Source: a virus (taxonomy: Duplodnaviria > Heunggongvirae > Uroviricota > Caudoviricetes). Taken from it: a stretch of DNA of 25,925 nucleotides. The position numbers and the translations under genes were made by a program. The notes under the pieces were generated by a model. That model searched no databases, was not told the origin of the DNA, and worked only from the letters and a program-made list of their open reading frames with translations. Shown piece after piece: positions 259 through 25,029 of this stretch; within the stretch, counting starts at the first letter, position 1, and each line of letters starts with the position of its first letter. The DNA is taken from the IMG/VR virus record IMGVR_UViG_2917403263_000005; one strand, written 5' to 3'.

Positions 259-267
259 TTGCCGGAT

Positions 268-2775: not shown

Positions 2776-2855
2776 GTTGCCTGAAATTTATGCCGTTTAA
2801 AATCATGACGTTAGAAGCACTGTTTTTTAACGATGGCGACAAAATGGCGGCAGCG

Positions 2856-3074: not shown

Positions 3075-3164
3075 TTTTCGAGTTCTCCCCATTTTTGCTA
3101 AATTCACAATAATGATACCGCATCATTCCATTTTGCAAACTTAAAAGTTCTCCATTGCGAAGAA

Positions 3165-4268: not shown

Positions 4269-4750
4269 GACAGCAGCCCTCCCACCGTTTTACTGATATC
4301 GCTTAAAGCAGATGTTGCCGTTTCCTGCAGATTATTCAGTTGCGCACTGAGATCACCGAACATATCGGACAGGGATTCATCCACTCGTTTGAGCGACAGG
4401 GTGAACTCAATCCGGCGCGGCATACCGTCGCGGAAAAACTCCGTTTTAGTCTGATTCAGTCCCTCAATCACATACATGCCGTAAATCGTGCCGCTGCCTT
4501 CAATCAGGGGCCATGCTTTCCCCTGTTCTGCCATCTGCTCAAGTGCCAGCAACGACAGCCTGCCGCCTGTTATCTCCGGCATAAGAACACCGGAAAGCGT
4601 CAGCATGTCGTTGTCCGGTCCCAGAAACTGCGTGGACGGACGACGATTTACCCGGCTGTTAGCCGCATGTCGCCAGCTGCGTTGATACTGCAGTTCCTGA
4701 TACGGCACGGTGCGCAGCATAAACACGTACAATCCCAGCACCATCATCAT
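4265..4750 (-). CDS. U: tail protein U
   Basis: 161 aa beginning MMMVLGLYVFMLRTVPYQELQYQRSWRH, near-identical in its N-terminus to P2 gpU. ATGA overlap with the T stop. Confidence 0.9.
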   Translation of the reverse strand: MMMVLGLYVFMLRTVPYQELQYQRSWRHAANSRVNRRPSTQFLGPDNDMLTLSGVLMPEITGGRLSLLALEQMAEQGKAWPLIEGSGTIYGMYVIEGLNQTKTEFFRDGMPRRIEFTLSLKRVDESLSDMFGDLSAQLNNLQETATSALSDISKTVGGLLS

Positions 4751-7824: not shown

Positions 7825-8253
7825 CGTTGGCCCCGCTTCTCTGAATCGCTTTATACCGCCATTCCAGCACTTCGGTCAGCGGCATAACGTCAGTAACGGA
7901 TGGCGGCCAGTGAAAGATGGTGGCGATATCTGCCACCAGATCGTCAACCGTCAGGCTGTCGGTAAACCGGCAAGCACCGACTTCTTCAACAAAAAAGTGA
8001 CAACCTCAACCGACATGGCAGTGAGATCTGCCGGGTCCATCTCTGCAATTTCCTGTGCAGTCAGTGCCGGACTGGAAATGCGGGGGATCACGGTCATCAT
8101 CGCGTTCACATCCATATCCATAATGGCCTGCAGGCGTGTACCGCGCAGCGCACCGGACTGCGGTTTACGCAGCACAATTTCGGTAATTTCTGTTTTACCG
8201 CGCATGATGGGGGTGTCCAGTTGAATGGTCTTTTCAGTCTGCTTATCGCTCAT
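7817..8253 (-). CDS. E+E': tail assembly chaperone E+E' (-1 frameshift product)
   Basis: After TTTTTTG the -1 frame stays open for 56 codons (VEEVGACRFTDSLTVDDLVADIATIFHWPPSVTDVMPLTEVLEWRYKAIQRSGANDE) and ends at TGA 7819-7817, overlapping the T start. This is the conserved P2 E/E' (lambda G/GT-like) arrangement. Confidence 0.65.
7951..8253 (-). CDS. E: tail assembly chaperone E
   Basis: 100-aa ORF immediately upstream of T, ATG at 8253. Contains the slippery heptamer TTTTTTG near its 3' end (minus strand, 7996-7990). Confidence 0.8.
   Translation of the reverse strand: MSDKQTEKTIQLDTPIMRGKTEITEIVLRKPQSGALRGTRLQAIMDMDVNAMMTVIPRISSPALTAQEIAEMDPADLTAMSVEVVTFLLKKSVLAGLPTA
7990..7996 (-). promoter_or_regulatory. 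programmed -1 ribosomal frameshift slippery site (T TTT TTG)
   Basis: Heptamer read directly on the minus strand inside E, in frame as ACT TTT TTG; the downstream -1 frame is open to the T start. Confidence 0.6.
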
Positions 8254-8307
8254 TTTGCTGTCCTGTAAATTGGGTTCTGGCGCGGTATCCCGCGCCGTTC
8301 AGATAGA

Positions 8308-8823
8308 TCAGAGGCCGAGGGCGTTGCGGTGCGCTTCCATCAGGTCCACACCGTCCACAATTTCCACCATGTTGATAAGGTCCACTTCATAGAGCACCTC
8401 ACCATTGATGGTCAGCTTCGCGTAGCTGTTGGTACTGGTCACTTTGGTGGTGTTGCTTTCGCCCGTCTTCCACTCGCCGGAATCCACTTCTTTGTGACGC
8501 CCACGCACCACAAGCTCCACGGCCTGCACTTCCCCGGTATCATCACGCTGAATAGAGCCGGTAAAGCGCAGCTGGATGCCATCCACCGTGGCTTTGCCCA
8601 TCTGCTTAAACAGCAGCAGTTCAGTACCACCAATGGAAAATTCTGTATCCAGTGCACTGTCATCCAGTCCCAGATCCACATCCACCGCCCCCGGCATACC
8701 GCCGCCGCGATACTTCTCATATTTGCGGGTGAATTTCGGCAGCGTCAGCGACTCAACGATCCCCTGCCAGTTGTTCCCGTCGTTAAACAGGTTCAGGTGT
8801 TTTAATTTGCGTGGTAAAGCCAT
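8308..8823 (-). CDS. FII: tail tube protein FII
   Basis: 171 aa, MALPRKLKHLNLFNDG...; size, sequence and position (between FI and E) match the P2 major tail tube protein. Confidence 0.9.
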   Translation of the reverse strand: MALPRKLKHLNLFNDGNNWQGIVESLTLPKFTRKYEKYRGGGMPGAVDVDLGLDDSALDTEFSIGGTELLLFKQMGKATVDGIQLRFTGSIQRDDTGEVQAVELVVRGRHKEVDSGEWKTGESNTTKVTSTNSYAKLTINGEVLYEVDLINMVEIVDGVDLMEAHRNALGL

Positions 8824-8832
8824 GTTGTCCCC

Positions 8833-10005
8833 TTACGCGCTGACCTGGCTGGCGAAATTCACCAGGTACTGATCGGTGATGCGCTGACGCAGCATCAGGT
8901 TTTCAAGTGGCGGCACTGGCGTGTAGTCGTAGTCGATGGTGAGCTTCCCGGCTTTCAGAGTGTCTTTATCGTTCACCGACTCGTCCAGCCAGCAATCACC
9001 ACCAATGAGATAGCCCTGACTGACCAGGCTGCGCATTTTGGCGCGGATACCTTCGATAATGTCGCGGGCCAGCGACGGGTTCAGCGGTTTGTCCACCGCC
9101 CACATATGCGCTTCTGCCATCGTGTCCATCAGTACCTGCGCCGTGCGGGTGTAGTTTTCGAAGGCAAAGAGCGGGTCATCACTCAGGCTGCGGGAACCCC
9201 AGAAGCGGAAACCGTCTTTGCGGATAAGCGTGGTGACGTCGTTCTGGTTCAGCAGACCTGCATCTGTTGCCGGGTCCTGCAGATCCCAGAACACATCAGC
9301 AGAAATTCCGGTGACACCGTTCACGCCCACGTTGGACAGGCTTTTGTGCCATCCGGTCTGCTCGTCAATTTTGGCGCGCAGGCCAAGCGCACGTGCGGTG
9401 GCGTATGCCGTTGCTTCGGCATTCAGCACCGTGTCCCAGCTGATAAAATCCGGCCAGATCAGCATCCCTTCACGCTGGCTGAAGTTTTCGCGGTAGGTAA
9501 GCACTTCTTCCACTGTTTTGCAGCCATACGCCGACAGGTAAGCAAACCCGCGCAGGCTTTGCGCCACACTCAGCAGCTCAGTCGCAACGGCTTTGTTATC
9601 GTGACCTGGCACGCCGAGAATGCGCGGTTTAACGCCGAGCTGTGACTGGGCAGATAACAGGGCTTTCATGCCTGTTTTTTTACCCTCGGCGGTCACTGCG
9701 CCGATGATATTGGTTGTGGTTTCTTCTTCCGTTTCACCCTGCGGCACACGCACAACAACGGTCACGGGTTTTGCCTGATCAGCGATGGCATCCAGCGAAC
9801 GGGCCAGCGTGCCGGACTCACCCGCTTTACCGCTGGCGGTCAGTACATCAGTTATCAGCACGGGTTTATTAAGAGGAAACATTTTTGCATCGGCATCATC
9901 GCCCGTGCAGACCATACCCACGATGGCGGTGCTCACCGTGGTAATGGATCGGGTGCCTTCGTTGACTTCAACAACGCGCACTCCGTGGTGGTAATCCTGA
10001 GCCAT
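8833..10005 (-). CDS. FI: tail sheath protein FI
   Basis: 390 aa, [19 protein letters not shown]...; strong AGGAGG Shine-Dalgarno 8 nt upstream of ATG 10005; matches P2 contractile sheath protein. Confidence 0.9.
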
Positions 10006-10199
10006 AGTGGCGAACCTCCTGATTGGATTAGGCTTCGCCCTATGTTGAAGTGATTGTGCCTGACAAACAGCTAAGCGCAGTTGTACCGTTATTCATACAA
10101 AATGAGGGGAAGGCTTCAGAAGCTCACTCCACACTGGCGCTTATAGAGCTGTGTCTGATCATATGTTGATACAAGTACATAACGAATAAGCATGGTTAA

Positions 10200-10222
10200 G
10201 CTCCCAGACCAGAACTGGGAGC
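10200..10222 (-). terminator. hairpin downstream of the acyltransferase cargo gene
   Basis: 8-bp inverted repeat GCTCCCAG / CTGGGAGC with 7-nt loop, 15 nt after the acyltransferase stop. No clean U-tract follows, so weak. Confidence 0.3.
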
Positions 10223-10236
10223 ATGCCATTCACTTG

Positions 10237-11421
10237 TTATTTCTGTATTCTCACTGCCATTCTTTTTTGCACATCAAAAAATTTATTAATCACTCCATTG
10301 CGATTAATAAATGGATATTCTATACCTTTAAAAGTCATATAAGCGATAGTCACAACAATTGGCGACAACATCAGAATTAAATATGCGTATGAATTATCAC
10401 TCAAATTTCGCACATACGCCTTCCCGAGTAAAACATCTAAAGTAAAATATAGAACAATCCCGTGCATTAGATAGATACTATATGATATCTCACCAAAGAC
10501 TCTGGAGATTTTCAACTTTAACACACCAAATAGATCACATCCATTTACGATCAAAATAAATATAGCGCCGATCAATAAAATTGGCAGGTAATCAAACGAG
10601 TGAGGGAAGTAAAACAACGAAAAAACGAAACCTGAAACACACAAAAACGATGTCAATTTCAAAGATGCAACTTTTAAGATTAATTTATTACCTCGTACTG
10701 CTGAAGCTAAAAAGCCACAGGCGAATGGCAGCAAAAAGATGTAATTTAAGTTGAGGTAATTAAACGCATATAAGCTAAATGCAGGGATAACTAGCACAAA
10801 GATATTTTTGGTTCTTCTCAAAGCAAATGCAATGAGCGGTAGAGAAAAATAGAATAACCACTCATACACAAGCGTCCAATAAATACCAGCATATATATAA
10901 CCAGTATCACTAAATCCATTTATATGTGAATTACCATAAGTTGCATATATCATCCATGAAAGAATGGATTCAATTAGTTCACCTGCACTTACATTGAGTT
11001 TCCAGCCTGTTTTATATCCTATGATAAATAATGCAATTAAAAGCGAGAACATATACAGAGGATATATTCTAAAAATTCTTGATTTGTACAACGAGAACCA
11101 ATTTATTTTTTTTGAATCAATTATTTTAGAAAAAAACAAATACCCCGTTATCATAAAGAAAATCATAACGGGTAATTGCCCTGCATTCGCAAATACATGA
11201 CTTGAAGGTAAAGACCATTCATTTGTTTTTATAAAGTGATGCCATATATAAGAGTGATGCAGAAACACTAAGAAGGCCAAATACCCTCTTAATCCATCAA
11301 TATTAACGTTCCTACCTTTACCTTCAATTGGTAGCGGGCTTATTTTATCAAGAAAATACAATATGGCGATAGCTGCAAATATAGCAGCTACTATTAACAT
11401 AGGGCTATTATAAATTAACAT
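10237..11421 (-). CDS. acyltransferase-3 family integral membrane protein (putative O-antigen/LPS O-acyltransferase)
   Basis: 394-aa ORF, ATG at 11421 with AAGG 9 nt upstream. Polytopic hydrophobic protein with the N-terminal AT3 signature NIDGLRGYLAFLVFLHH (DGLRG...H). Two sampled 60-nt lines gave about 32% and 40% G+C, against about 52% in a sampled line of the flanking sheath gene. Confidence 0.8.
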   Translation of the reverse strand: MLIYNSPMLIVAAIFAAIAILYFLDKISPLPIEGKGRNVNIDGLRGYLAFLVFLHHSYIWHHFIKTNEWSLPSSHVFANAGQLPVMIFFMITGYLFFSKIIDSKKINWFSLYKSRIFRIYPLYMFSLLIALFIIGYKTGWKLNVSAGELIESILSWMIYATYGNSHINGFSDTGYIYAGIYWTLVYEWLFYFSLPLIAFALRRTKNIFVLVIPAFSLYAFNYLNLNYIFLLPFACGFLASAVRGNKLILKVASLKLTSFLCVSGFVFSLFYFPHSFDYLPILLIGAIFILIVNGCDLFGVLKLKISRVFGEISYSIYLMHGIVLYFTLDVLLGKAYVRNLSDNSYAYLILMLSPIVVTIAYMTFKGIEYPFINRNGVINKFFDVQKRMAVRIQK

Positions 11422-11640
11422 GTAATTAACCTTAGGATTTTTCAGAAATTTTCACAGCAATATTTTTATATTGTACGCTCACAAATATATCTTTCACAAT
11501 ATAAATGGTCATTACCATCATCAAAAACTGTCCCAGGATTACAGTTCTCCTGAACTCAACCAGGGCGAGAGTATCTCTATCATGTTGATTTGCAACGTGC
11601 CAGTAGCCTGTTTTATCGTGTTTCCAAAATGAGCTGGTTA

Positions 11641-11678
11641 AAAACTGGCAGGCATGAAAATCTACCTGCCAGTTTTTT
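11641..11678. terminator. bidirectional terminator-like hairpin after tail-fibre assembly gene
   Basis: AAAA-CTGGCAGG (11645-11652), 12-nt loop, CCTGCCAG (11665-11672), TTTTTT (11673-11678). Immediately 3' of the tail-fibre assembly stop (11677-11679). Confidence 0.45.
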
Positions 11679-12066
11679 ACAATGCAGGTTTATCAGGCCA
11701 TTCAATGTCCGGAGCAGTAGATGTATCGACAGCTTTCACGTCTTTGACATACTGCATCCACATAATCAACTTTGCTTTATTTTCATCACTAATGGTTCCC
11801 AGAAATAAATCAGTCCGCCAGTCTGCTGTTACGGCATTAGCATCTGCAAGCCGTGATTGTCTTTCCTGTTCAGCATTGTTAACCAGCTCTTCATATGTTT
11901 TTACGGGGGCTGGCGGAGCAATAAATTCACCATCAGCGAAAAGCCAGCCAATGCGCACTCCATCAGCAAGTGGGAACACTTGAAAACCATCCGTAGCCCA
12001 TTCACTCTCCCCATCCCATACCGCAATGTTGACAACAACACCATCTCTCACCATTGCATAATTCAT
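11677..12066 (-). CDS. G: tail fibre assembly chaperone (Tfa / gpG-like)
   Basis: C-terminal block LGTISDENKAKLIMWMQYVKDVKAVDTSTAPDIEWPDKP matches the conserved Tfa C-terminus. Start placed at ATG 12066 (GGAG 9 nt upstream, TAATG overlap with the upstream stop) rather than the ORF-track start at 12081. Confidence 0.8.
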   Translation of the reverse strand: MNYAMVRDGVVVNIAVWDGESEWATDGFQVFPLADGVRIGWLFADGEFIAPPAPVKTYEELVNNAEQERQSRLADANAVTADWRTDLFLGTISDENKAKLIMWMQYVKDVKAVDTSTAPDIEWPDKPAL

Positions 12067-12386
12067 TATGCGTACTCCCATACAATTACAATGCCTGCCA
12101 TCCCTGCACCTCCAGCACGTTGCTGTGTCGCGCCGCCGTAAACACAGGCACCGCCACCACCGCCACCTGGTCCATTAGCATTAATTCCTTCTCCGGCAAT
12201 GGCCTGTGAACCCGCGCCCTCACCCAGAACAGAACTGCCACCAGGTCCTCCCATTGCCAGCAATCCTGAATAGCGAACACCTGGCATGGTATAGCCACTG
12301 CCACTGCCAAAAATATTCGCCCCCGTGAATCCAGGTGTGTATGCACCAGCAGGCCCTACAACGGCTACATTATTACCCTCTGTCAT
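12066..12386 (-). CDS. glycine-rich tail-fibre C-terminal segment, out of frame with H (likely 3' part of a split tail-fibre gene)
   Basis: 106-aa ORF whose ATG overlaps the H stop (TAATG). Composition (GPGGGGGGACVYGG...) continues the Gly-rich character of the last 80 residues of H. The -1 frame is open across the G10 tract, so one extra G or two fewer would fuse it to H. Confidence 0.6.
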   Translation of the reverse strand: MTEGNNVAVVGPAGAYTPGFTGANIFGSGSGYTMPGVRYSGLLAMGGPGGSSVLGEGAGSQAIAGEGINANGPGGGGGGACVYGGATQQRAGGAGMAGIVIVWEYA

Positions 12387-13771
12387 TACAGCTCCACCCC
12401 CCCCCCTTTTGCGGTAACAACGTCACCAAATGCTGAACTTCCCCCTGTCGCCCCCGGCATTGCACTGGCTCCCGTTCCTCCGTACCCAACGGTAACCGTT
12501 GTTACTACCGGATGGTCTATGCGGGCTTTAACGTATTCTCCCGACATTCCCCCTCCGCCGCAGGCAGCATTGCCCCCTGTACCGACCTGGCATCCGCCGC
12601 CAGCGCCACCACCGCCAACCACTTCAACAATCGCAAACTTTATACCTGCAGTTGGCGTATATGTCCCGGAGGCTTTGAACACCTGACATTTCACCAGTCG
12701 GCCTGTTCCGTCGCCAAGCCCAAGGTATGTGAGAAGACCAGCTACATCCTTTCCACTCAAATTAGTCAGCGTATTATCCAGCGGTTGTTTTCCCGCCAGT
12801 GCATTAAGCATTGTCGTGGCAAAGTTCGGGTCATTCCCCAGCGCCGCCGCCAGTTCGTTCAGCGTATCCAGTGCCGCAGGTGCAGAACCCACTATTGCTG
12901 CAATCGCCGATTTCACAAAAGCCGTGGTGGCAATCTGTGTATTGTTGACCGACTGTGCCGCAGTCGGTGCTGTTGGCGTTCCGGTGAATGCCGGACTCGA
13001 CAGCGGCGCTTTCAGTGCTAACGCATTGTTAATGGTGGTGCTGAATTTCGGATCATTGTTAATGGCTGCGGCTATTTCTTTCAGCGTGTCCAGCGTGGCT
13101 GGCGCACCATTAATAAGAGCCGTCAGTGCCGCCTGAACAAACGCAGTGGTCGCAACCTGCGTGGTATTATTCCCCGCCGCTGGCGTTGGCGCTTTGGGTG
13201 TTCCGGTAAACGTCGGACTTTCTTTGGGTGCATACTGTGAATGCGGGTCCAGTGCGGCAAGATGTTTTGCCATCTGATCATCCGCGTACACCTTCAGCTC
13301 CAGTACCTTATCATCCACATACTTGCGAGTCGCCAGTACTACAGCAGGGTCGATTGTCAGGGTGATATTGTCCGTACTACTGGTAATCAGCACCATACGC
13401 ACGGTCTGGGTACGCCCGCTGCCTTCAGCCAGTTGCGGCTTATAGCTTTCCGGGCAGTTGCCCACGGCAATCAATGCCCCGGATTCATCAAACAGGCCCA
13501 CTTCACGTATCCACCAACCGCCCTCGTTTTCAGGGATCACCTGTTCAGCAATAATCTGGCTGCTGTTCTGCGGGTCGATATAGAGCATATTCAGCGCAGC
13601 CCGGCGTTTCTCATTTACCAGTGCAGTCTGCTTTGCGTCCGGCGTTGGCAATGTCCCGCCGCCATCGCCGACCGCCATATGGGTAATTTTTAAAGGCACA
13701 CCGAGCGCGGCGGCGCTGGCAAGTTTCGCCGCGCCAATATCCGTCAGCAGGGTATAAAATTTTGTGCTCAT
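12386..13771 (-). CDS. H: tail fibre protein H (N-terminal baseplate-binding part plus repeats; apparently truncated at a G10 tract)
   Basis: 461 aa. N-terminus MSTKFYTLLTDIGAAKLASAAALG is P2 gpH-like. Two tandem ~70-aa repeats (SPTFTGTPKAPT...NALALKA and SPAFTGTPTAPT...NALAGKQ) followed by a Gly-rich C-terminus. ATGA overlap with the I stop. Confidence 0.85.
   Translation of the reverse strand: MSTKFYTLLTDIGAAKLASAAALGVPLKITHMAVGDGGGTLPTPDAKQTALVNEKRRAALNMLYIDPQNSSQIIAEQVIPENEGGWWIREVGLFDESGALIAVGNCPESYKPQLAEGSGRTQTVRMVLITSSTDNITLTIDPAVVLATRKYVDDKVLELKVYADDQMAKHLAALDPHSQYAPKESPTFTGTPKAPTPAAGNNTTQVATTAFVQAALTALINGAPATLDTLKEIAAAINNDPKFSTTINNALALKAPLSSPAFTGTPTAPTAAQSVNNTQIATTAFVKSAIAAIVGSAPAALDTLNELAAALGNDPNFATTMLNALAGKQPLDNTLTNLSGKDVAGLLTYLGLGDGTGRLVKCQVFKASGTYTPTAGIKFAIVEVVGGGGAGGGCQVGTGGNAACGGGGMSGEYVKARIDHPVVTTVTVGYGGTGASAMPGATGGSSAFGDVVTAKGGGVEL
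12397..12406 (-). repeat. homopolymeric G10 tract (C10 on plus strand) at the 3' end of tail-fibre gene H
   Basis: Counted directly: plus strand ccaCCCCCCCCCCtttt. On the coding strand it reads GCA AAA GGG GGG GGG GTG GAG CTG TAA. Confidence 0.9.
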
Positions 13772-14373
13772 GGATTCACTCTCATTGTGTCAATAACATG
13801 GATCGCCCCGCCTTCATGCGCGGTGCCGCCAGAAATAATTGTTTCGTTGATATACGGATAGATCGTGATTTCTTCGCCAAGATAGCTGGCGGCCCCCACC
13901 CAATGCGGACCGCTGGTCTGCAGATTGATGGACATGCCGATCATGTGACGGCTACATGGTTTGGCATCGCTTATCAGTCGCTCAAGTTCCAGATAGGTAT
14001 CTTCAGTGATGCCCTGATCCTGCACGCCGATATCCAGGCGAAACGTGCCTGGTGTTTCTCCGGTCTGCCACCACTCAATAATGCGGATCAGAAAGCCGAA
14101 CGGCTCCACCACCCGCCGCACGGCACTGGTGGTTCCTTTGTGCTGATGAATATAAAAAGCATCCTTCACCACCTGGCGTTTGACGCTTTCTGTCCAGCTC
14201 TCGTCCCAGCGATCCACAGAGAACGCCCAGGCGAGATAAGGCAGGAAACTGACCGGACAGGTAGCCGGATCCCACAAGTCACGTAGCGGCACCTGCAAAT
14301 CAGAAATCCCGCTGCAGGTTTGTGCCAGTCGGCGCTCCAGTGGTGTTGAACCCGGTGGCAGCAGACTATTCAT
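13768..14373 (-). CDS. I: baseplate protein I
   Basis: 201 aa; motifs LPYLAWAFSVDRWDE and PGTFRLDIGV match P2 gpI. Confidence 0.85.
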   Translation of the reverse strand: MNSLLPPGSTPLERRLAQTCSGISDLQVPLRDLWDPATCPVSFLPYLAWAFSVDRWDESWTESVKRQVVKDAFYIHQHKGTTSAVRRVVEPFGFLIRIIEWWQTGETPGTFRLDIGVQDQGITEDTYLELERLISDAKPCSRHMIGMSINLQTSGPHWVGAASYLGEEITIYPYINETIISGGTAHEGGAIHVIDTMRVNP

Positions 14374-15274
14374 CCGTTCCTCCGTTGGTTACGCTCCACT
14401 GCGTACATGATGCCGCCTGCGTTTTGTTCAGAACCACATCCGCCAGCGGAGAAGCCAGTTCCACACGCTGCACACCCTCAACATGCAGCGCGGCAAAAAT
14501 GGCACTACGGCGAATATCCCGACCGAGCCGCGTCTGACTGGCAATGTACCTCTGCAGACTGGCTTTTGCCGCTGCCATTACCGGCTCTGCTTCCGGTCCC
14601 GGATAGAGAAAAATGGTGGCATCCACCCGGTACGGGATGATTTCTGCGCTGCGAACCGTCAGACGGTCAGCCACCGGGCGGACGTTCTCACTGTTCAGGG
14701 CTTTTTCCACCACGTCCAGCAGGTCTTTTTCTGCTGTTCCGTCGCCTTCGCGGCTAAGGACAGTCAGCACCACCTCTGCAGGTGCCGGACTGGTTGCACT
14801 GGCATCCGCCACCCGACCGTCGGCGCTTCGTGCATGAAATTCATAAGCGGCAGTTGGCCCCGCAACTGAAAGTCCTTCAAAGGCTGCAGGCACACGCAGG
14901 CGTAACGCTTCATCGCTTTCCATCACAGCCGCAACGGGCGGTACAGCGTCATCATCAGCAGGCGTCACCGTCAGGCGTTTCACGTTGTAGTTGGCAGCGA
15001 GCTGGTCCAGATCGCCGCCCATCGCATAAGCCACCATCACCGCCTGCGCGGCTTCGTTAATGCGCTGGCGCAGAAGCAGCTCACGATAAGCGTTCTCCTG
15101 CAACAATTTGGTGACGGGTTCAGATTCCAGTTCCAGCGTGCGGATCACTGCTTCCTGCTCATCTTTCGGATGAAGCGCCACAAATTCTGCCTTGCGTTCG
15201 GCAAGCAGCGTCTCAAAGTCCGACACATCCACAATCTGCGGCGCAGGCAACTGCGAAAGGTCAATCACTGCCAT
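14366..15274 (-). CDS. J: baseplate assembly protein J
   Basis: Matches P2 gpJ (MAVIDLSQLPAPQ...LHVEGVQRVELASPLADVVLN). Start placed at ATG 15274 (AGGAG 8 nt upstream) rather than the ORF-track start at 15313. Confidence 0.85.
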   Translation of the reverse strand: MAVIDLSQLPAPQIVDVSDFETLLAERKAEFVALHPKDEQEAVIRTLELESEPVTKLLQENAYRELLLRQRINEAAQAVMVAYAMGGDLDQLAANYNVKRLTVTPADDDAVPPVAAVMESDEALRLRVPAAFEGLSVAGPTAAYEFHARSADGRVADASATSPAPAEVVLTVLSREGDGTAEKDLLDVVEKALNSENVRPVADRLTVRSAEIIPYRVDATIFLYPGPEAEPVMAAAKASLQRYIASQTRLGRDIRRSAIFAALHVEGVQRVELASPLADVVLNKTQAASCTQWSVTNGGTDE

Positions 15275-15620
15275 TCTCTGCTCCTGTTGATACGGAAAGG
15301 GAAACAGGCACACCGTTATTACGCCGCCCGGTCAGCTCCACCACCATTGAACCGTCAAAATCGCTGTTGATGGTGATGGAATCCAGCGTCAGCCGTGGCT
15401 CCCAGCGACTCAGCGCCACATACACTGCCGACATGACCTGCAGGCGTAACGCCGAATTTTGTGGCTGATCTATCAGTGCCGACAGCAGGGAACCATATTC
15501 CCGGCGGGCAATGCGGCTACCCTGCGGCGTCAGCAGAATGTCCCGCACTGACTGGCGCAGATGGTCAATATCAGTAATGGTCTTGCCCGTTGCGCTGTTC
15601 ATGCCGTAATACATCGTCAT
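15261..15620 (-). CDS. W: baseplate wedge protein W (gp25-like)
   Basis: 119 aa; MTMYYGMNSATGKTITDIDHLRQSVRDILLTPQGSRIARREYGS matches P2 gpW; ATGA overlap with the V stop. Confidence 0.85.
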   Translation of the reverse strand: MTMYYGMNSATGKTITDIDHLRQSVRDILLTPQGSRIARREYGSLLSALIDQPQNSALRLQVMSAVYVALSRWEPRLTLDSITINSDFDGSMVVELTGRRNNGVPVSLSVSTGAENGSD

Positions 15621-16195
15621 ACCGGGCCTCCCGATGTGTCGCCGCCAGACTTCACTTTATTGTGCGCGTGGTCATCCACCACGATCTCGTTGGAACTCAT
15701 CGGGCCGCCGCCCTGAGTCACACCACCGTTGATCACCACCTCACTGTTAATACGGGTGGTGTCGGCTTCCACGATAAACTCCCCGGTTTTGAAGGTGACG
15801 TTATCCACCGCCTCGATCACCATGGATTTAATACCCCGAACGTACCAGCGCCCGATTTCGGGGTCGTACTCAAACCAGCCGCCGTCCGGGTATTCCGTCA
15901 CGTTGCCGTCCTCAGACCTGGACGGCGGCGGAAACTGGTTTGAATAGACGGCAGGCAGGGCAAAGGCGGTTTCCAGATTGCCGCCCAGGCTGAACAGCAC
16001 AACCTGCTCCCCCACAGACGGTTTCCACCAGGTGCGCGAGTTGCCCGCGCGCAGCGTCAGCCAGTTAATCCAGTTGGTTTCAAGCTCACCCGTTTTCACC
16101 CGGCACAGCCAGTTGTCCCGGTCCACTGCCGTTACAGTTCCGGTGCGGATTAGGTTGGTGATAAGGCGCATGATTTCTGTGAGTTGTGCGTTCAT
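15617..16195 (-). CDS. V: baseplate spike/assembly protein V
   Basis: 192 aa; MNAQLTEIMRLITNLIRTGTVTAVD...RSEDGNVTEYPDGG is P2 gpV-like; ATG at 16195. Confidence 0.85.
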   Translation of the reverse strand: MNAQLTEIMRLITNLIRTGTVTAVDRDNWLCRVKTGELETNWINWLTLRAGNSRTWWKPSVGEQVVLFSLGGNLETAFALPAVYSNQFPPPSRSEDGNVTEYPDGGWFEYDPEIGRWYVRGIKSMVIEAVDNVTFKTGEFIVEADTTRINSEVVINGGVTQGGGPMSSNEIVVDDHAHNKVKSGGDTSGGPV

Positions 16196-16251
16196 AGCTA
16201 TAGATTGCCATGAATGATGTATCTAAGAACAAGGTGAGCTTAGTCTGGTCC

Positions 16252-16279
16252 ATGACACAATTAAGAATTACTATATAAA
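16252..16279 (+). promoter_or_regulatory. candidate sigma70 promoter for the V-S cargo gene
   Basis: ATGACA (16252-16257), 16-bp spacer, TATAAA (16274-16279), about 30 nt upstream of ATG 16310. Hexamers read by eye in an AT-rich region, so this is weak. Confidence 0.3.
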
Positions 16280-16309
16280 AATTGTTAACTACTTGGTTGA
16301 GAAACAAAC

Positions 16310-17137
16310 ATGAAAAATAAGAACCAGTATCAGGCTTTACTTAGAGGGAAGGTCGAATCGGCGATTGCTCAAGCCAAAAGTGCTGCAGGATTTTCCCACC
16401 AGGGTGTTAAGGGAGCTGTTCTAGAAATATTATTAAGTCAACTATTTCGACCTCTTTTGCCCGCAGATGTTGGCATTGGCACAGGGCAAATCATTGAACA
16501 GTATTCAGGAAAGTTATCACCTCAAATAGATATTATTATTTACAATAAATCAATACTCCCTCCGATATTAATCGATGGTGCCACAGGGTTATTCCCAATA
16601 GAATCAGTTCTATATACCATTGAGGTAAAAACCACATTAAGCTCATCGGAACTCAGCTCTGCACACTCAAGTGCAAAAGAACTTAATGAGAAATTCGGTT
16701 ACTTACCTGGAATAAAAGATGAATCAGGCAAACTAATCCAACACAAAATAGAGAAACTTCGCTCGGTAATATTCGCTCTAAGTAGCGACTTATCACCAAA
16801 TGGAATTACTGAAGCCGAAAGGTATAAAAAAATATACAAAGAAGACTTTCGTTACGTTACAGCAATTTGCGTTGCAGGTCGTGAGTATAGTTATGAAGAT
16901 CGAGATTGCTGGGTAACAATGCGTAATACTCAAGCGTATGATGAAATCCTTGCATTTATTGGAGGCATAACCAATACATATAAAGGTGTTTCAGAAAGTC
17001 GTGGGACACCATTGCTAGGATATTACATTGTTCCAGAGAATGTCGAACTGAGCCTTACAGCTTGTACCACACTCCCGGAATTGCAAGTTAAGTGCACGCA
17101 ATGCGCTGAAACTAAAAAAAATAATCCCCACCTTTGA
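16310..17137 (+). CDS. uncharacterised PD-(D/E)xK-like nuclease-fold protein with C-terminal CxxC (cargo gene, frame as called)
   Basis: 275-aa ORF on the strand opposite all flanking late genes. Restriction-endonuclease-like motif pattern E39 ... D74 (PQIDIIIY) ... E105-x-K107 (YTIEVKTT). C262-x-x-C265 near the C-terminus. AT-rich: two sampled lines gave about 27% and 38% G+C. I cannot assign it to a named family. Confidence 0.6.
   Translation: MKNKNQYQALLRGKVESAIAQAKSAAGFSHQGVKGAVLEILLSQLFRPLLPADVGIGTGQIIEQYSGKLSPQIDIIIYNKSILPPILIDGATGLFPIESVLYTIEVKTTLSSSELSSAHSSAKELNEKFGYLPGIKDESGKLIQHKIEKLRSVIFALSSDLSPNGITEAERYKKIYKEDFRYVTAICVAGREYSYEDRDCWVTMRNTQAYDEILAFIGGITNTYKGVSESRGTPLLGYYIVPENVELSLTACTTLPELQVKCTQCAETKKNNPHL
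17114..17121 (+). repeat. A8 homopolymer at the point where the cargo ORF changes frame
   Basis: Counted directly: actAAAAAAAAtaat (17114-17121). In frame it reads ACT AAA AAA AAT AAT CCC CAC CTT TGA. Confidence 0.9.
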
Positions 17138-17297
17138 CAACGATGATGAACTAATACTAAAAAACTACACTATTACTGATAACAAGCCTTGTAAATGTGG
17201 TGGGGAATTTAAATCAGAAAAAGGTAATTTCACCATTAAAAATGGTCGACTGAGAGAAATAGAGTACAACGAGCCAGCTCGAATTTACAAAGAGTAA
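17136..17297 (+). other. out-of-frame coding continuation of the cargo gene (+1 frame, no start codon) carrying the second half of a zinc ribbon
   Basis: Open frame ...DNDDELILKNYTITDNKPCKCGGEFKSEKGNFTIKNGRLREIEYNEPARIYKE ending at TAA 17295-17297, 15 nt before the S stop. It has no ATG/GTG/TTG start of its own. Its CKC pairs with the upstream CTQC to give CxxC-x33-CxC. Confidence 0.55.
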
Positions 17298-17311
17298 ATA
17301 TAACGAAGGAA

Positions 17312-17758
17312 TTAAGGCCTTAGCCATTTATAAACGACAGATGCAATTTCATCTTTGTCAGATGAAGTAAAACCTAGTAACAGCCGCTCCGCATAACGTA
17401 CCTCTGGCCCCCGGCGGCTTACACGATCGAGCAGACCGTAATGGTGAACACGGGCAATACGCTGCACCTTGCCTTCAAACTGTACGCTGGCAGAGTCGGC
17501 GCTGGCGGCAGTTTTCAGGTATTTTGTGGTGCGCAGCTTTGCAAACATCTGACGTTTGATGCGCCCCTTTTTACTGCGTGCTGTTACCCGTCGCGGTTCA
17601 TAGCTGCTGCCGTCAGGGTTGCGCTGCATCCTGATATTCTGCTGCTGTGTCCGGCGCAGTTCCTGCGCCAGCTGACGCATCATGCGAATTCTTGCGGCTG
17701 GCTCCAGATTCGCCAGCAAGGCACTCAGCCAGTCGTCCACTTTCTGCAGTTCAGCCAC
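17312..17758 (-). CDS. S: tail completion protein S
   Basis: 148 aa, GTG start; (M)AELQKVDDWLSALLANLEPAARIRMMR resembles the P2 gpS N-terminus; overlaps the R stop. Confidence 0.85.
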   Translation of the reverse strand: MAELQKVDDWLSALLANLEPAARIRMMRQLAQELRRTQQQNIRMQRNPDGSSYEPRRVTARSKKGRIKRQMFAKLRTTKYLKTAASADSASVQFEGKVQRIARVHHYGLLDRVSRRGPEVRYAERLLLGFTSSDKDEIASVVYKWLRP

Positions 17759-18182
17759 GTTTCACCGTCCACATTTCTTCAGGTTCATCGGGTTCCGTTA
17801 TCGCTTCAACGCTCGACACACTTCCGTCAGTGCTGACCAGCACACGCTCCGTCAGTTGCAGGTTCAGGCTGATATCACAGACATCATTGCGCAGAATATC
17901 CACCTCAAAGGTGAATAACTTTTCCCGTAACGTCGGGTTATTGATGGCATCGGGCTGGTTATCCCGCAGCCACAGCAAAACCGGAGCCATCAGCAGATTC
18001 TGGTCGCCGCTGAAATCCTCGATCACCACGTTCAGGGTATAACGGTACTCCCATGACATGGAGCTGGCCCCCGTGGCAACCAGCGAACCGTTATCCACAA
18101 ACAGATGCAGTTTGTCCGGGTTATTACAGACATAAGGCACCGCTTTATTGAGGGCGTGGCGCAGGGATTGTGGTTTGTTCAC
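17751..18182 (-). CDS. R: tail completion protein R
   Basis: Alignment with P2 gpR begins at VNKPQSLRHALNKAV. Start placed at GTG 18182 (AGGAG 7 nt upstream) rather than the TTG at 18203 used by the ORF track. Confidence 0.85.
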   Translation of the reverse strand: MNKPQSLRHALNKAVPYVCNNPDKLHLFVDNGSLVATGASSMSWEYRYTLNVVIEDFSGDQNLLMAPVLLWLRDNQPDAINNPTLREKLFTFEVDILRNDVCDISLNLQLTERVLVSTDGSVSSVEAITEPDEPEEMWTVKRG

Positions 18183-18435
18183 TGTTTCGCTCCTGACACG
18201 CAATAATCATGTCCACTTTGTCTGCACAGACCGCCCAGGCAGCCTCCGTTTCATCCAGCAATGCGTTCAGATCACCGTTAGTGCGCGGCGCTGCCTGATC
18301 CAGCCGACACGGCGTCACTCGCGGACAACCACTGACGGTAAGCTGCACCTCCGGTGAGTGCCGGACGTTCCCGCAGCCGGATAATGTCAGCAGGCAAAGG
18401 AGTATCAGCCCAGCGGCGTAAATCCTCGTTCTCAC
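18145..18435 (-). CDS. lysC: LysC / Rz1-like outer-membrane lipoprotein (o-spanin), overlapping lysB
   Basis: 96 aa with signal peptide and lipobox LTLSGC, Pro-rich; embedded out of frame in the 3' part of lysB and running into R, as in P2. GTG start with GAGGA 8-9 nt upstream. Confidence 0.6.
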   Translation of the reverse strand: MRTRIYAAGLILLCLLTLSGCGNVRHSPEVQLTVSGCPRVTPCRLDQAAPRTNGDLNALLDETEAAWAVCADKVDMIIACQERNSEQTTIPAPRPQ

Positions 18436-18706
18436 TTTTCAGTTCCTCGATCCGGCGTTGTCGTTGTCTCAGCAATGCGCTGGTCTGTTCAGCTTCGGCA
18501 TAGAGCCGCGCCTGCTCCCGGTTATTGGTTTCAGTCAGAATGGACAGGCTGATAAGCTGGCTGTTGCTCTTTGCCAGTGCCTGGCTTTTGCTCTGCAGCT
18601 CGTCTGCCTGCGTGCTGATGGTCTGGCTGGCATCAGCCAGCCGCCACGTCTGCCAGCCCAGCGCCGCCAGTAATAACGCCAGCATAACCAGCAGCAACCG
18701 GTTCAT
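18278..18706 (-). CDS. lysB: LysB / Rz-like inner-membrane spanin
   Basis: 142 aa; N-terminal TM anchor MNRLLLVMLALLLAALGW followed by a long coiled-coil-like region rich in Q/E/R/L. Confidence 0.7.
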   Translation of the reverse strand: MNRLLLVMLALLLAALGWQTWRLADASQTISTQADELQSKSQALAKSNSQLISLSILTETNNREQARLYAEAEQTSALLRQRQRRIEELKSENEDLRRWADTPLPADIIRLRERPALTGGAAYRQWLSASDAVSAGSGSAAH

Positions 18707-19080
18707 GCTGCTACCTGTTGCGCCATCTGGTTACGGGTGATCCGGAAGGCAATAACGGTCAGCAGATAAAAGACCAGGGTAATGGCCCACCCCGTCCAGG
18801 CGAGACTTACGACAATCAGCAATCGCATCACCCAGCTGATAAATACGTTTTCTTTTCGGGTAATGGTCTTCAGCAAAGATGCCCTCAACTCCTGCCAGAG
18901 CGGGCCGTTCTTAATTAACGCAGCCAGTGATACCGGAATTACCGCCCATGTCAGCAGACAGGCTACCCAGACACCGGACGCTGCCAGTACCGGAAAAATC
19001 CCCTGCGGATACACCATTGCTGCGATCAACAGCGCCATCCATAACATCAGAAACAGCCCGCTGATTACTTTCTTTTTCAT
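18703..19080 (-). CDS. lysA: LysA-like membrane protein (lysis timing)
   Basis: Four predicted TM segments. Start placed at ATG 19080 (MKKKVISGLF...), directly after the endolysin stop, rather than the ORF-track start at 19152. Confidence 0.6.
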   Translation of the reverse strand: MKKKVISGLFLMLWMALLIAAMVYPQGIFPVLAASGVWVACLLTWAVIPVSLAALIKNGPLWQELRASLLKTITRKENVFISWVMRLLIVVSLAWTGWAITLVFYLLTVIAFRITRNQMAQQVAA

Positions 19081-19081
19081 T

Positions 19082-19594
19082 TCAGTTTGCTCCCTGTAAG
19101 CACCAGGCCATCTCCCGCGCACGGCGGTTATCCAGCCCCTGATTAAACACACCTTTTACATACACCCAGCGCGGCAACTGTCGGCACGCATCCGCCCAGC
19201 GCCGCTGATTGAGCAATTTCACCAGCGTGGAACTACAGGCATTGCCCGTCCCCACGTTGAAGGCAAACGACACCGTAGCGTCATACACCTTCTGCGGTGG
19301 CTGTTGCTTCACACACCTTTCCAGCGCCCGCTCCACACGCAGCACGTTGGAGATCAGCCCTTCTGCTGCCTGTCGCTCCGTAATGGTTTTGCCGGGAATG
19401 ACGCCCGACGTATTACCAATGCCGTCGGTCCAGACACCCGCGCTGCACTGATACGGCTGCAGACGACAACCTTCGTAATCGGCAATCAGTTTCAGCCCTT
19501 CCACGGAGGTGTGAAGCTGCTGAAAACCCGGCAGCGTGGCAGCAATAGCCAGCACGGCCCCGACAAGGCAGCGTTTAACGATTGATGGATTCAT
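19082..19594 (-). CDS. SAR-type endolysin (T4-lysozyme/GH24-like, P1 Lyz / phage 21 R-like)
   Basis: 170 aa. N-terminal weakly hydrophobic Gly/Ala-rich segment KRCLVGAVLAIAATLPGF, then catalytic block EGCRLQPYQCSAGVWTDGIGNT characteristic of SAR lysozymes. Confidence 0.85.
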   Translation of the reverse strand: MNPSIVKRCLVGAVLAIAATLPGFQQLHTSVEGLKLIADYEGCRLQPYQCSAGVWTDGIGNTSGVIPGKTITERQAAEGLISNVLRVERALERCVKQQPPQKVYDATVSFAFNVGTGNACSSTLVKLLNQRRWADACRQLPRWVYVKGVFNQGLDNRRAREMAWCLQGAN

Positions 19595-19790
19595 AGTCCT
19601 CCCGCGAGATCTGCCCGTCGCGCAGAAGCTGGTAGGCTTTGTGTTTGTAGTACCAGTTGATAGCCAGCATCAGCACACCAATCATCAGGCCGCCCAGCGT
19701 TGAGGCATCCTTGATGGACAAATCGCCCAGCCAGGCCAGCACAACGGCGATGCAATACGTGATAAAGGCGCTGATTCGCTCAAGCGTCAT
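19575..19790 (-). CDS. small two-TMD holin (pinholin-like)
   Basis: 71 aa, two hydrophobic segments (ISAFITYCIAVVLAWLG; LGGLMIGVLMLAINWYY) and a charged C-terminus; immediately upstream of and overlapping the SAR endolysin. Confidence 0.65.
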   Translation of the reverse strand: MTLERISAFITYCIAVVLAWLGDLSIKDASTLGGLMIGVLMLAINWYYKHKAYQLLRDGQISREDYESINR

Positions 19791-19793
19791 AAT

Positions 19794-19997
19794 TCAGTCC
19801 CATAGCTGGACGGTCTGCACGGTGGTGGTGGTCGGAATGTCCGGCAGCTCCACCTGCAGCCCGTGAGGTAAAAAGGGGCCGTATTCGGCAAGCCCCGGAT
19901 TTGCCTTCAGTACCTGCTCCGTGACACCCTGCGTGCGCCCGTAATGACGCCAGCAAAGCGCGTCCACCGTGTCATACTGATGCGCACGCACTTTCAT
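19794..19997 (-). CDS. X: tail protein X
   Basis: 67 aa, MKVRAHQYDTVDALCWRHYGRTQGVTEQVLKANPGLA matches P2 gpX. Confidence 0.8.
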   Translation of the reverse strand: MKVRAHQYDTVDALCWRHYGRTQGVTEQVLKANPGLAEYGPFLPHGLQVELPDIPTTTTVQTVQLWD

Positions 19998-20461
19998 CAG
20001 ATAAGCTCCACTGTGCAGTGCGGCGCATCCTGTACCCGGCTGATGGCCCAGCGGGCGTCACGCCACAAATCACCGCTGGCTTCTGCCAGTTCTTCGCCCC
20101 GCTTCACACCGGATGCCGTGGCGTCATAGTCCTGGTAACGTTCGTTGAGCATGGCGCGTGCCCAGCAGTAAACCGCGTTGAAATAGTGCTGAATGCGCTC
20201 ACTTTTGCCGTCCAGCTGTTCCGCCGGAACCTCTGCCAGCGAGGCATACCCCAGCATCTGCTGGCGTCTGCGAAACTCATACAGCTCTGCGTTGACCTCC
20301 GAAATTGCCGACAGCGCAACCTGCTTTAAACGCGGCTGCGTCACCGTGCCGTCAGTGCGCATCACGCTGCGAAACTCCGACAGGTCCACATCAGGCCAGA
20401 ACGGCGTATTTCTGATGATTTCCGCCTGTTCCGGTGCCTGTTCTGGCGCAACAAACTTCAT
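19997..20461 (-). CDS. L: capsid completion protein L
   Basis: Matches P2 gpL (FWPDVDLSEFRSVMRTDGTVTQ...TVELI). Start placed at ATG 20461 (GGAG 10 nt upstream) rather than the GTG at 20524 used by the ORF track. Confidence 0.8.
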   Translation of the reverse strand: MKFVAPEQAPEQAEIIRNTPFWPDVDLSEFRSVMRTDGTVTQPRLKQVALSAISEVNAELYEFRRRQQMLGYASLAEVPAEQLDGKSERIQHYFNAVYCWARAMLNERYQDYDATASGVKRGEELAEASGDLWRDARWAISRVQDAPHCTVELI

Positions 20462-20556
20462 GCTGCTTTCTCCTGAAATAAAGGGCGGTGGACGGGGTTT
20501 TGATGTGGCAGTGCCTTTCGCCACCCCGTGCCGCCCGTGCGCGGGGGCACGTTCTG

Positions 20557-21208
20557 TCAGCGGCTGTCATTGCGCAGTCTGCGCTCCAGCTGCTGTTTGT
20601 CTTTTTTCACGCCACAGCGGGGATCGAGCTGTAACGCATGGTTGAGATGATTAAGGGCGGAAGCCGGATTGCTTTCACTCAGGACAGCGCCAATCGCTTT
20701 ATGCAGACGTGCCCGTGACTGGTCCGGCATATCCAGACCGTCTGTCAGCTCCAGCGTCTGCAGCAACAGATCAGCATCAAAGCCGGTGGCGGCAAGCATT
20801 GCGCTCTGCGCTGCGTCTGCCATTTCCTCTGCCAGCACGGTCTGCACGTTGCGGTTACCCAACGGCATCACCCAGCCATGACGCAGGGCGTGACGCCCGA
20901 TCTCCAGCCGCCCCGGCATAATCTCCGGCATCAATGCGCCACAGCATCACGTACATCAGCACGTCATCCTGTTGCGCGCCTCCGGCAGCCAGGACACCCT
21001 CTGCCCAGGCGGCGTATTTCGGCAGCAGTTCCACCTTGATTTCCGCTTTTTTGACCGTGGACTGAACACCCTTGAGACGGCGGCGGTCTTCCGCCAGTTG
21101 CAGCAGCATCAGGTCATAGCCCGACGCGTGGCGAACGCTGCCGCCCTCACGGGCGGCCTGTTCAGCCTGAACGCGCAGGCGATGCTGCCGTGCGGGACTC
21201 AGGCTCAT
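20557..21208 (-). pseudogene. M: terminase endonuclease/small subunit M, interrupted by a 1-nt frameshift
   Basis: N-terminal part (frame A, 21208..20855: ...DDVLMYVMLWRIDAGDYAGA) and C-terminal part (frame B, 20934..20557: LEIGRHALRHGWVMP...GVKKDKQQLERRL) each match consecutive halves of P2 gpM. The join needs removal of one G in GCCGGGGCG-G-CTGGAG (plus strand 20902-20917). Confidence 0.75.
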
Positions 21209-23262: not shown

Positions 23263-25029
23263 ATGAACACCACACTGACACCCGCAGATCTCGATCCCCG
23301 TCGGCAGGCCATGCTGCTGTACTTTCAGGGATACCGCGTAGCCCGCATTGCTGAAATGCTGGGCGAGAAAGTTGCAACCGTTCACAGCTGGAAAAAACGC
23401 GACAAGTGGGGTGACTATGGGCCGCTGGATCAGATGCAGCTCACCACCGCCGCACGCTACTGCCAGCTCATTATGAAGGAGCACAAAGAAGGGAAAGATT
23501 TCAAAGAGATTGACCTGCTGGCGCGCCAGTCGGAGCGCCACGCGCGGATCGGCAAGTTTAACAATGGCGGCAACGAAGCCGACTTAAACCCTAACGTCGC
23601 CAACCGCAACAAAGGGCCGCGCCGTCAGCCGGAAAAGAATGTTTTCACCGATGAACAGATTGAGAAGCTGGAAGAAATCTTCCATTCCTCCATGTTCAAC
23701 TACCAGCGCCACTGGTGGGAAGCAGGAAAAACCAACCGCATCCGTAATCTGCTGAAGTCACGCCAGATCGGCGCGACCTTTTACTTTGCCCGTGAAGCCC
23801 TGATTGACGCCCTGCTTACCGGACGTAACCAGATTTTCCTTTCTGCCAGTAAGGCACAGGCGCACGTCTTTAAGCAGTACATCATCGATTTTGCCAAAGA
23901 AGTCGAAGTGGAGCTGAAAGGCGATCCGATGGTGCTTCCTAACGGTGCCACGCTTTACTTCCTCGGCACCAATGCCCGCACGGCCCAGAGTTATCACGGC
24001 AACCTGTATCTGGATGAATATTTCTGGATACCGAAATTTCAGGAGCTGCGCAAAGTGGCTTCCGGTATGGCTATTCACAAAAAATGGCGACAAACCTATT
24101 TTTCCACGCCATCCAGCCTGACCCACAGTGCTTATCCGTTCTGGTCCGGTGCGCTGTTCAATCGTGGGCGCAACAAAGCCGATAAGGTGGACATCGACCT
24201 GTCCCACAACAATCTGGCCCCCGGCCTGCTGTGCGCAGACGGGCAATACCGCCAGATAGTCACCGTGGAAGATGCGGTGCGCGGCGGCTGTAACCTGTTC
24301 GATCTCGACCAGTTGCGCATGGAGTACAGCCCGGACGAATACCAGAACCTGCTGATGTGTGAGTTCGTGGACGATCTCGCGTCCGTGTTCCCGCTCAGCG
24401 AGCTGCAGGCGTGCATGGTGGACAGTTGGGAAGTCTGGACCGACTTTCATGCACTGGCGCTGCGCCCGTTTGGCTGGCGCGAGGTTTGGATCGGTTATGA
24501 CCCGGCAAAAGGTACGCAGAACGGCGACAGCGCCGGATGCGTGGTGGTGGCACCGCCAGCCGTGCCGGGCGGTAAGTTCCGCATTCTTGAGCGTCACCAG
24601 TGGCGCGGGATGGACTTCCGCGCCCAGGCTGACGCCATCAAAAAACTGACCGAACAGTATAACGTGACCTATATCGGCATCGACTCGACCGGCGTCGGTC
24701 ACGGGGTTTACGAGAACGTGAAAGCATTTTTTCCTGCCGTCAGGGAGTTTGTCTACAACCCCAACGTTAAAAACGCCCTGGTACTCAAGGCCTACGACAT
24801 TATCAGCCACCGCCGTCTGGAGTTTGACGCCGGGCACACCGACATTGCGCAGTCATTTATGGCAATCCGTCGCGCCACCACTGCCAGTGGCAACCGCCCG
24901 ACCTATGAAGCCAGCCGCAGCGAAGAAGCCAGCCATGCCGATCTGGCCTGGGCAACAATGCACGCACTGTTTAACGAACCGCTGCAGGGCGAGTCCGCCA
25001 ATACCAGCAATATTGTGGAGATTTTTTGA
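23263..25029 (+). CDS. P: terminase large (ATPase) subunit P
   Basis: 588 aa; MNTTLTPADLDPRRQAMLLYFQGYRVARIAEMLGEK... matches P2 gpP; divergent from O. Confidence 0.9.
   Translation: MNTTLTPADLDPRRQAMLLYFQGYRVARIAEMLGEKVATVHSWKKRDKWGDYGPLDQMQLTTAARYCQLIMKEHKEGKDFKEIDLLARQSERHARIGKFNNGGNEADLNPNVANRNKGPRRQPEKNVFTDEQIEKLEEIFHSSMFNYQRHWWEAGKTNRIRNLLKSRQIGATFYFAREALIDALLTGRNQIFLSASKAQAHVFKQYIIDFAKEVEVELKGDPMVLPNGATLYFLGTNARTAQSYHGNLYLDEYFWIPKFQELRKVASGMAIHKKWRQTYFSTPSSLTHSAYPFWSGALFNRGRNKADKVDIDLSHNNLAPGLLCADGQYRQIVTVEDAVRGGCNLFDLDQLRMEYSPDEYQNLLMCEFVDDLASVFPLSELQACMVDSWEVWTDFHALALRPFGWREVWIGYDPAKGTQNGDSAGCVVVAPPAVPGGKFRILERHQWRGMDFRAQADAIKKLTEQYNVTYIGIDSTGVGHGVYENVKAFFPAVREFVYNPNVKNALVLKAYDIISHRRLEFDAGHTDIAQSFMAIRRATTASGNRPTYEASRSEEASHADLAWATMHALFNEPLQGESANTSNIVEIF

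Follow-up and report, generated by a model that had tools for sequence, protein, structure and literature searches.

Three frame disruptions in a P2-like prophage of Escherichia sp. E3659 probably have two causes: sequencing errors in two genes and a genuine allele in the tail fibre

Three split genes in the late region

The window analysed here, the whole 25,925-nt stretch of the IMG/VR record IMGVR_UViG_2917403263_000005, holds a P2-like prophage in which the tail-fibre gene, a nuclease cargo gene and the small terminase gene gpM are each split by a disruption of the reading frame. All three disruptions, lying within 9 kb, are present in the deposited sequence at or near the places where the original prediction had put them, and its caution that the pattern should be resolved before any single lesion is read biologically was right, as the answer turned out to be a mixture of causes. 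We consider it probable that the three disruptions have two causes, with the run of eight adenines (A8) in the cargo gene and the extra base in gpM being sequencing errors, and the run of ten guanines (G10) in the fibre gene being a genuine allele.

The prophage is integrated beside ybjL, ybjM and grxA. The window covers its late region from ogr to P, with the early region lying outside, and the late genes run from ogr/D (~2.9 kb) to P/Q (~25.9 kb), chiefly on the minus strand, with the phage backbone interrupted by two cargo genes of low guanine-plus-cytosine (GC) content. A comparison over 19,616 nt showed 100% identity between the window and contig PDID01000004.1 of assembly GCA_004745145.1, for which the NCBI protein records give Escherichia sp. 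E3659 as the organism. PDID00000000 belongs to the cryptic-clade-II strain E3659 from Hong Kong intertidal sediment, and its draft was assembled by MIRA and SPAdes from Ion Torrent single-end reads of 35–400 bp at 40x coverage (PMC6639607). A check of platform and coverage, which had been recommended beforehand, therefore places the source on an indel-prone platform (PMC6639607). Apart from the three split genes the open reading frames (ORFs) of the late region are full-length, in agreement with the earlier view that the remaining late genes look intact.

The N-terminal ORF of the fibre gene ends with the codons ACC GCA AAA GGG GGG GGG GTG GAG CTG TAA, in which the stop lies 8 nt past G10, and the ATG of the downstream 106-residue ORF overlaps this stop (TAATG) with a GGAG located 5 nt upstream. 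The 106-residue ORF is 99% identical to residues 463–568 of intact 568-residue fibres, and one added G, or a −1 slip, fuses the two ORFs. In the intact fibre the Pfam domain Gly_rich_2 occupies residues 370–564, of which the truncated product keeps only profile positions 7–95 of 226; G10 thus cuts the C-terminal, presumably receptor-recognising, glycine-rich domain in half. Owing to the net −1 change, the fibre ends within this domain, at residue 461, and the last 106 codons are left as a separate ORF overlapping the stop with its start. The distal fibre is most likely non-functional or very poorly expressed, and slippage from G10 to G11 could in principle restore the frame. The tract itself (C10 on the plus strand) is the sole G/C run of at least 9 nt in the window, against 0.03 expected from shuffles; among the 24 loci compared such runs were found at the fibre site only, and an uninterrupted run of this kind was otherwise absent from the ~400 kb of related DNA examined.

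The cargo ORF (16310–17137, plus strand) ends in the window at 275 residues, and the rest of the gene can be read in the +1 frame up to 17297. Dropping one A yields a product of 328 residues, in which the additional 53 residues carry the second half of a CxxC...CxC motif, and relatives have A7 and a 328-residue product. gpM appears in the window as two ORFs of 117 and 125 residues, and when it was aligned with Klebsiella phage 4LV2017 and E. coli prophages an extra base became apparent (GCCGGGGCGGCTGG versus GCCGGGGCGCTGG). This confirms the 1-nt insertion proposed originally and moves it from 20917 to the site listed in the table. Likewise, the proposal that all lesions are single-base events applies to A8 and gpM, while G10 differs from the common allele by the loss of two T and the gain of one G.

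Table. Coordinates of the split genes, the lesions and the genes used for comparison (positions in the window unless a contig is named)
Feature	Position	Strand	Remarks
P2 E/E+E' programmed −1 frameshift site TTTTTTG, tail assembly chaperone	~7990–7996 (region ~7817–8253)	−	intact
Tail-fibre assembly gene (Caudo_TAP)	11677–12066	−	Pfam; intact
106-residue ORF with the rest of the glycine-rich domain	12066–12386	−	−1 frame; ends ...IVIVWEYA like full-length relatives
Tail-fibre gene (P2 gpH-like), N-terminal 461-residue ORF ending ...TAKGGGVEL (stop)	12386–13771	−	Pfam Phage_tail_fib at residues 1–150
G10 homopolymer in the tail-fibre gene	12397–12406	−	net −1 versus GGGGGGTTGGG
DUF6602 / NucC-like PD-(D/E)xK nuclease cargo gene	16310–17297	+	between gpS and gpV; low GC
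A8 run in the cargo gene	17114–17121	+	A7 in independent same-strain data
gpM (small terminase / endonuclease subunit)	20557–21208	−	split by an extra base at plus-strand 20908–20909 (CC for C)
gpP (large terminase)	23263–25029	+	intact in the window; control gene
gpU frameshift	PDIB01000030.1, 13331–13809		sister Ion Torrent assembly
grxA (host) frameshift	PDIA01000061.1, 9067–9324		sister Ion Torrent assembly

Independent assemblies of strain E3659 and the frameshift baseline

Two further assemblies of the same strain were compared with the window. Contig VATQ01000003.1 of the second NCBI assembly of E3659 (GCA_005781135.1) matches positions 1–12620 with 0 mismatches and 0 gaps, G10 included, and the Logan assembly of run SRR8835201 matches positions 2386–23773 (21.4 kb) with 0 mismatches and exactly two gaps, at which A8 at 17114 becomes A7 and the extra C at 20908 is gone. 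Consequently, A8 and the gpM insertion are missing from independent same-strain data whereas G10 is retained, and the first two are artefacts because neither is found in a second read set of this strain, which is otherwise identical. This amounts to two false indels within the 23.8 kb of the window compared. In the SRR8835201 assembly gpM is intact with 216 residues, and the relatives also have the shorter sequence; for the cargo gene, products of both lengths are deposited at NCBI for E3659, 275 residues under a CRI65 locus tag and 328 residues under an FEK47 locus tag, of which the 328-residue DUF6602 product of the second NCBI assembly also implies A7. The A8 run is thus an Ion Torrent homopolymer overcall, and the true cargo gene extends to 17297 and encodes 328 residues; the gpM insertion is a consensus error of the Ion Torrent draft, and true gpM has 216 residues.

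A third assembly, of run SRR6148330 in Logan, shows 0 mismatches to the window over 13.3 kb, from which we infer that the run derives from E3659 or a clone of it. At the A8 site it reads A7, and it retains the insertion in gpM; gpP contains in addition a 1-nt deletion at window position 23579, which the GenBank assembly, taken by the same inference to come from this run, does not have. The Ion Torrent reads themselves thus appear noisy. Differences that consist of 1-nt indels only, with 0 substitutions, and that appear to depend on the assembler are the signature of flow-space error and are unlike mutation. Ion Torrent sequencing is known to miscall long homopolymers.

Since direct counting of indels was limited to one same-strain pair (the window and the VATQ assembly), frame splits were detected by tblastn in the same 13–20 conserved genes across sister assemblies. 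This baseline count, a check proposed at the outset, found frameshifts in two of the three sister Ion Torrent assemblies (one in host grxA, one in gpU; see the table) and in none of the seven other assemblies, i.e. frameshifts comparable to those in the window occur in assemblies of the same project. The suspicion of an indel-prone assembly therefore held for A8 and gpM, which independent same-strain data lack, and failed for G10, which was reproduced and is recurrent.

Two observations speak against regarding A8 and the gpM insertion as errors. A Logan contig of 2.5 kb from run SRR32904615, 97.6% identical, has A8 in the cargo gene as well, and therefore A7/A8 may also vary naturally. The gpM insertion was reproduced by two assemblers from the Ion Torrent reads, which implies an error recurring systematically in the reads or, with lower probability, a true variant in the first culture.

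Apart from its frame, the cargo gene shows further features. It is an insertion with a GC content of ~0.40, and several close relatives lack it. PADLOC matched the product to CRISPR-associated PD-DExK (E = 7e-32) and to NucC-type effectors (E = 7e-14). The cargo gene appears to be a candidate for anti-phage defence, situated in a P2 hotspot.

Alleles of the fibre site and their explanation

At the fibre site, the common in-frame allele is GGGGGGTTGGG (11 nt, encoding KGGLGG), from which the 10-nt allele GGGGGGGGGG of the window differs by two T lost and one G gained, a net change of −1. GGGGGGTTGGG was seen in two complete E. coli genomes, two IMG/VR contigs and further Logan contigs, an in-frame variant GGGGGGGTGGG (KGGVGG, with Leu changed to Val) was also observed, and intact fibres of 566–568 residues were found on at least 160 contigs from E. 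coli, E. ruysiae and Shigella. G10 derives from GGGGGGTTGGG, probably by way of GGGGGGGTGGG: on the simplest path, the T bordering the G6 run would have changed to G, and the single T then separating G7 from G3 would have been deleted.

Both NCBI assemblies of E3659 carry G10, as does the SRR8835201 Logan assembly, and every E3659 assembly spanning the site therefore has it. It was further found in two other samples. The first is the E. coli isolate SRR35690774 (NCBI protein EPS2524001.1), whose fibre region of 2.2 kb shows no difference, apart from the tract, from the intact copy of the complete genome NZ_AP027886.1; this isolate is represented by contigs of 89–306 kb from two assemblers, which argues that G10 itself is real. 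The second is a contig of run SRR26188678, whose E3659-like background has nine dispersed differences from the window in 2.8 kb. Because it was reproduced in independent E3659 data and recurs in two other samples, G10 is very likely a genuine allele that also exists in other bacteria. Taken together, it is most likely that G10 is a real inactivating allele which recurs at a G-rich hot spot. The second net −1 allele and the contig breaks described below suggest, though not cleanly, that the fibre site is such a hot spot.

Several searches for further alleles gave negative results. By exact protein look-up in a 15-billion-protein collection, G10-truncated products were not found in six further backgrounds. 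Pattern scans for tract variants returned two viral contigs and one metagenome contig, all with interrupted alleles, a broader viral pattern scan returned no further tract variants, and scans of genome contigs gave no relevant match (first 0, then three chance matches in unrelated metagenome-assembled genomes).

Some other contigs also deviate at or near the tract. A second net −1 allele, GGGGGTTGGG (G6 to G5), occurs in a third sequence background and yields the same split into 461 and 106 residues; it lies ~10 nt upstream of TGGAGCTGTAATG and was found on five contigs from two projects (L027, L028, L029 and L032 from runs SRR348993xx, and L034 from DRR848653). Logan contigs of SRR8634378 and SRR15598597 start exactly at GGGTGGAGC, and the contig of the Ion Torrent run SRR6148330 ends at window position 12458, 52 nt before the tract. 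Such contig breaks hint at heterogeneity among reads or at a drop of coverage in the G-rich stretch. On one more contig (ERR4220878_3, positions 1860–2821), a terminase fragment adjoins the last 106 fibre codons with an intact GGGGGGTTGGG tract, a junction that reflects either the loss of a large internal segment from a related prophage or a mis-join.

The five GGGGGTTGGG contigs also vary at a neighbouring gene, an Acyl_transf_3 gene (10237–11421, minus strand; GC ~0.32–0.36) between the fibre-assembly and sheath genes, which is probably an O-antigen-modifying conversion gene. Its T8 run at 11106–11113 (A8 on the coding strand) is A7 in L027 and L032, as against L028, L029 and L034. In these two of the five otherwise identical contigs the change produces a frameshift with ORFs of 105 and 271 residues, as real variation or platform noise, and the GGGGGTTGGG contigs may therefore be noisy.

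As to the gene around the tract, only the first ~1 kb of the fibre gene matches Klebsiella and E. coli P2-like phages (~95% identity), and the C-terminal part is a different cassette. The Gly_rich_2 cassette with its chaperone (11650–12720, minus strand, ~1.1 kb) was absent from all 50,697 INPHARED records, in which the first ~40 nt of the query match, and the cassette was found in 2 of 5426 complete E. coli genomes. This pattern is a typical receptor-cassette swap.

Certain points weigh against the reading of G10 as a genuine and recurrent allele, and they concern both its origin and its calling. On either side of the tract, the E. coli G10 copy first departs from the window 248 nt upstream and 220 nt downstream, so that G10 could have moved from one background to another on a short recombined segment; G10 may thus have arisen independently or may have been transferred on a patch of at most ~470 bp. 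G10 in the other samples was read from assembled contigs. Moreover, were SRR8835201 and the VATQ assembly also Ion Torrent data, a true G11 could have been read as G10 in both sets of E3659, and the literature search found no paper giving the platform of the second data set. All three lesions would then be artefacts, and the fibre gene would really contain G11, in frame with Leu replaced by Gly and undercalled as G10. The platform of the assembly, on which long homopolymers are prone to miscalls, and the break of the SRR6148330 Logan assembly just before the tract are in keeping with this explanation, but we regard it as quite unlikely: a run of exactly ten G was obtained from four read sets of at least three submitters (SRR6148330 via the PDID assembly, SRR8835201, SRR35690774 and SRR26188678), one of them the isolate with long contigs from two assemblers, and no G11 product exists in the 15-billion-protein collection for the seven backgrounds tested. 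Illumina GGT-to-GGG error or two-colour poly-G was rejected by reasoning as a source of G10. Such artefacts give substitutions or G runs at read ends, and not a net 1-nt deletion followed by the correct flank.

If G10 is accepted as genuine, it may be asked whether the split has a function. That the G-rich fibre codons form a recurrent −1 hot spot acting as a reversible switch, or that the split fibre is tolerated through translational coupling, is altogether unlikely; the net −1 alleles seen were of two kinds, G10 in two sequence backgrounds and GGGGGTTGGG in a third. Two functional explanations may be considered. In the first of these, G10 would be a working contingency locus, in which a slipped-strand switch between ON (G11 or G8) and OFF (G10, G9) releases mixed phages. 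A tract of this length is long enough for hypermutability by slipped-strand mispairing. The tract is an uninterrupted homopolymer of at least 7 nt in coding sequence, exceptional for Escherichia DNA and located in a receptor-recognition gene, and a +1 slip gives a full-length fibre again. The second net −1 allele at the same site in another lineage, the two runs whose contigs break exactly at the tract, and the phage polyG precedents named in PMC12633550 would also fit. Against these points, only a length of 10 was seen, in three independent samples (E3659, SRR35690774 and SRR26188678, by assemblies and protein look-ups), and exact look-up in the same protein collection found no G8, G9, G11 or G12 products in the E3659 and E. 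coli backgrounds and no G11 product in four to five further backgrounds. The tract is also not conserved, most relatives carrying the interrupted GGGGGGTTGGG or GGGGGGGTGGG, and the GGGGGTTGGG contigs come from runs that vary at the A7/A8 run and are possibly noisy. Since no in-frame tract length was found, phase variation is unproven, and with it the phase-variable prophage of the original prediction; a working contingency locus has a low probability.

In the second explanation the split would be used or tolerated, either because the ribosome or the transcription machinery slips by −1 on G GGG GGG or because the coupled 461- and 106-residue pieces assemble. G GGG GGG is formally an X XXY YYZ slippery heptamer, with the −1 frame open for 106 codons, the stop/start overlap with its upstream GGAG is of the kind described above, and G10 is common to two copies that have nine differences in 2.8 kb. 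However, no downstream stimulatory structure was found, as the 97 nt following the heptamer fold no better than shuffles (z = +0.72), the two-ORF arrangement is missing from most homologues, which are single ORFs of 566–568 residues on the contigs counted above, and a single Pfam domain is interrupted at its middle. The presence of ATG and GGAG is coincidental because both already exist as in-frame codons in intact genes. Programmed frameshifting as an evolved feature was rejected for lack of downstream structure and conservation, and a tolerated or used split is very improbable.

Equally remote is the view of three real lesions in a prophage that decays through accumulating frameshifts: the lesions do stand in the deposited sequence, and two assemblers of the first run agree on the gpM insertion, but a second same-strain read set lacks two of the three with no substitution over 21.4 kb, indel-only differences between assemblies of one strain are a platform-error signature, conserved host genes of same-project sister assemblies carry frameshifts, and every other late gene is intact. 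With the two artefacts discounted a single genuine lesion is left, and hence the prophage is not decaying and is otherwise intact, with full-length late genes from ogr to P and without the several lesions or module loss of a cryptic prophage, so that the decaying prophage suggested earlier was not borne out.

Meaning and comparison with known systems

The overall result, two consensus errors beside one most likely genuine fibre allele, is ordinary and of an already known kind, and its main use is as a warning about the assembly series. Its chief value is practical, in that two apparent pseudogenes, a truncated defence-type nuclease and a dead terminase, would have been over-interpreted. All cryptic-clade-II drafts of the PDID-series should be regarded as prone to indels, with ~1 false indel per 10–12 kb observed here, and many false pseudogenes are likely in the PDHW–PDIL series. 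The fibre lesion is a minor but genuine observation: a glycine-rich domain encoded by GGN codons has yielded G10, which breaks the receptor-binding end in at least three samples. If the tract proved reversible in culture, contingency loci would no longer be confined to virulent Campylobacter phages and coliphages but would include temperate P2-like prophages, which the present evidence does not show.

Compared with known systems, the A8 run and the gpM insertion resemble the indel errors of Ion Torrent sequencing at homopolymers and short runs, being 1-nt miscalls from A7 to A8 and from C to CC, whereas G10, which was reproduced in independent data and in other strains, does not. Phage contingency loci, including polyG precedents, are the subject of a preprint by Gomez, Barrick and Waters (2025; PMC12633550). 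In the receptor-binding proteins of Campylobacter Fletchervirus with their hypermutable polyG tracts (Sorensen et al., 2021), as at G10, a G-run of 7–11 lies in a host-recognition gene and a change of ±1 switches the frame; unlike these and other phage contingency loci, G10 is derived from an interrupted sequence and is unconserved, and neither length variation nor an ON state was seen. The −1 frameshift of P2 E/E+E' is genuine and conserved in all relatives, in contrast to the fibre G10, which is unconserved and lacks a stimulatory structure. Finally, the fibre region resembles the P2 gpH/gpG module in its N-terminal Phage_tail_fib domain, its I-H-G gene order and its downstream Caudo_TAP chaperone, and the swappable C-terminal receptor domain of that module is represented here by a rare, frame-disrupted Gly_rich_2 cassette.

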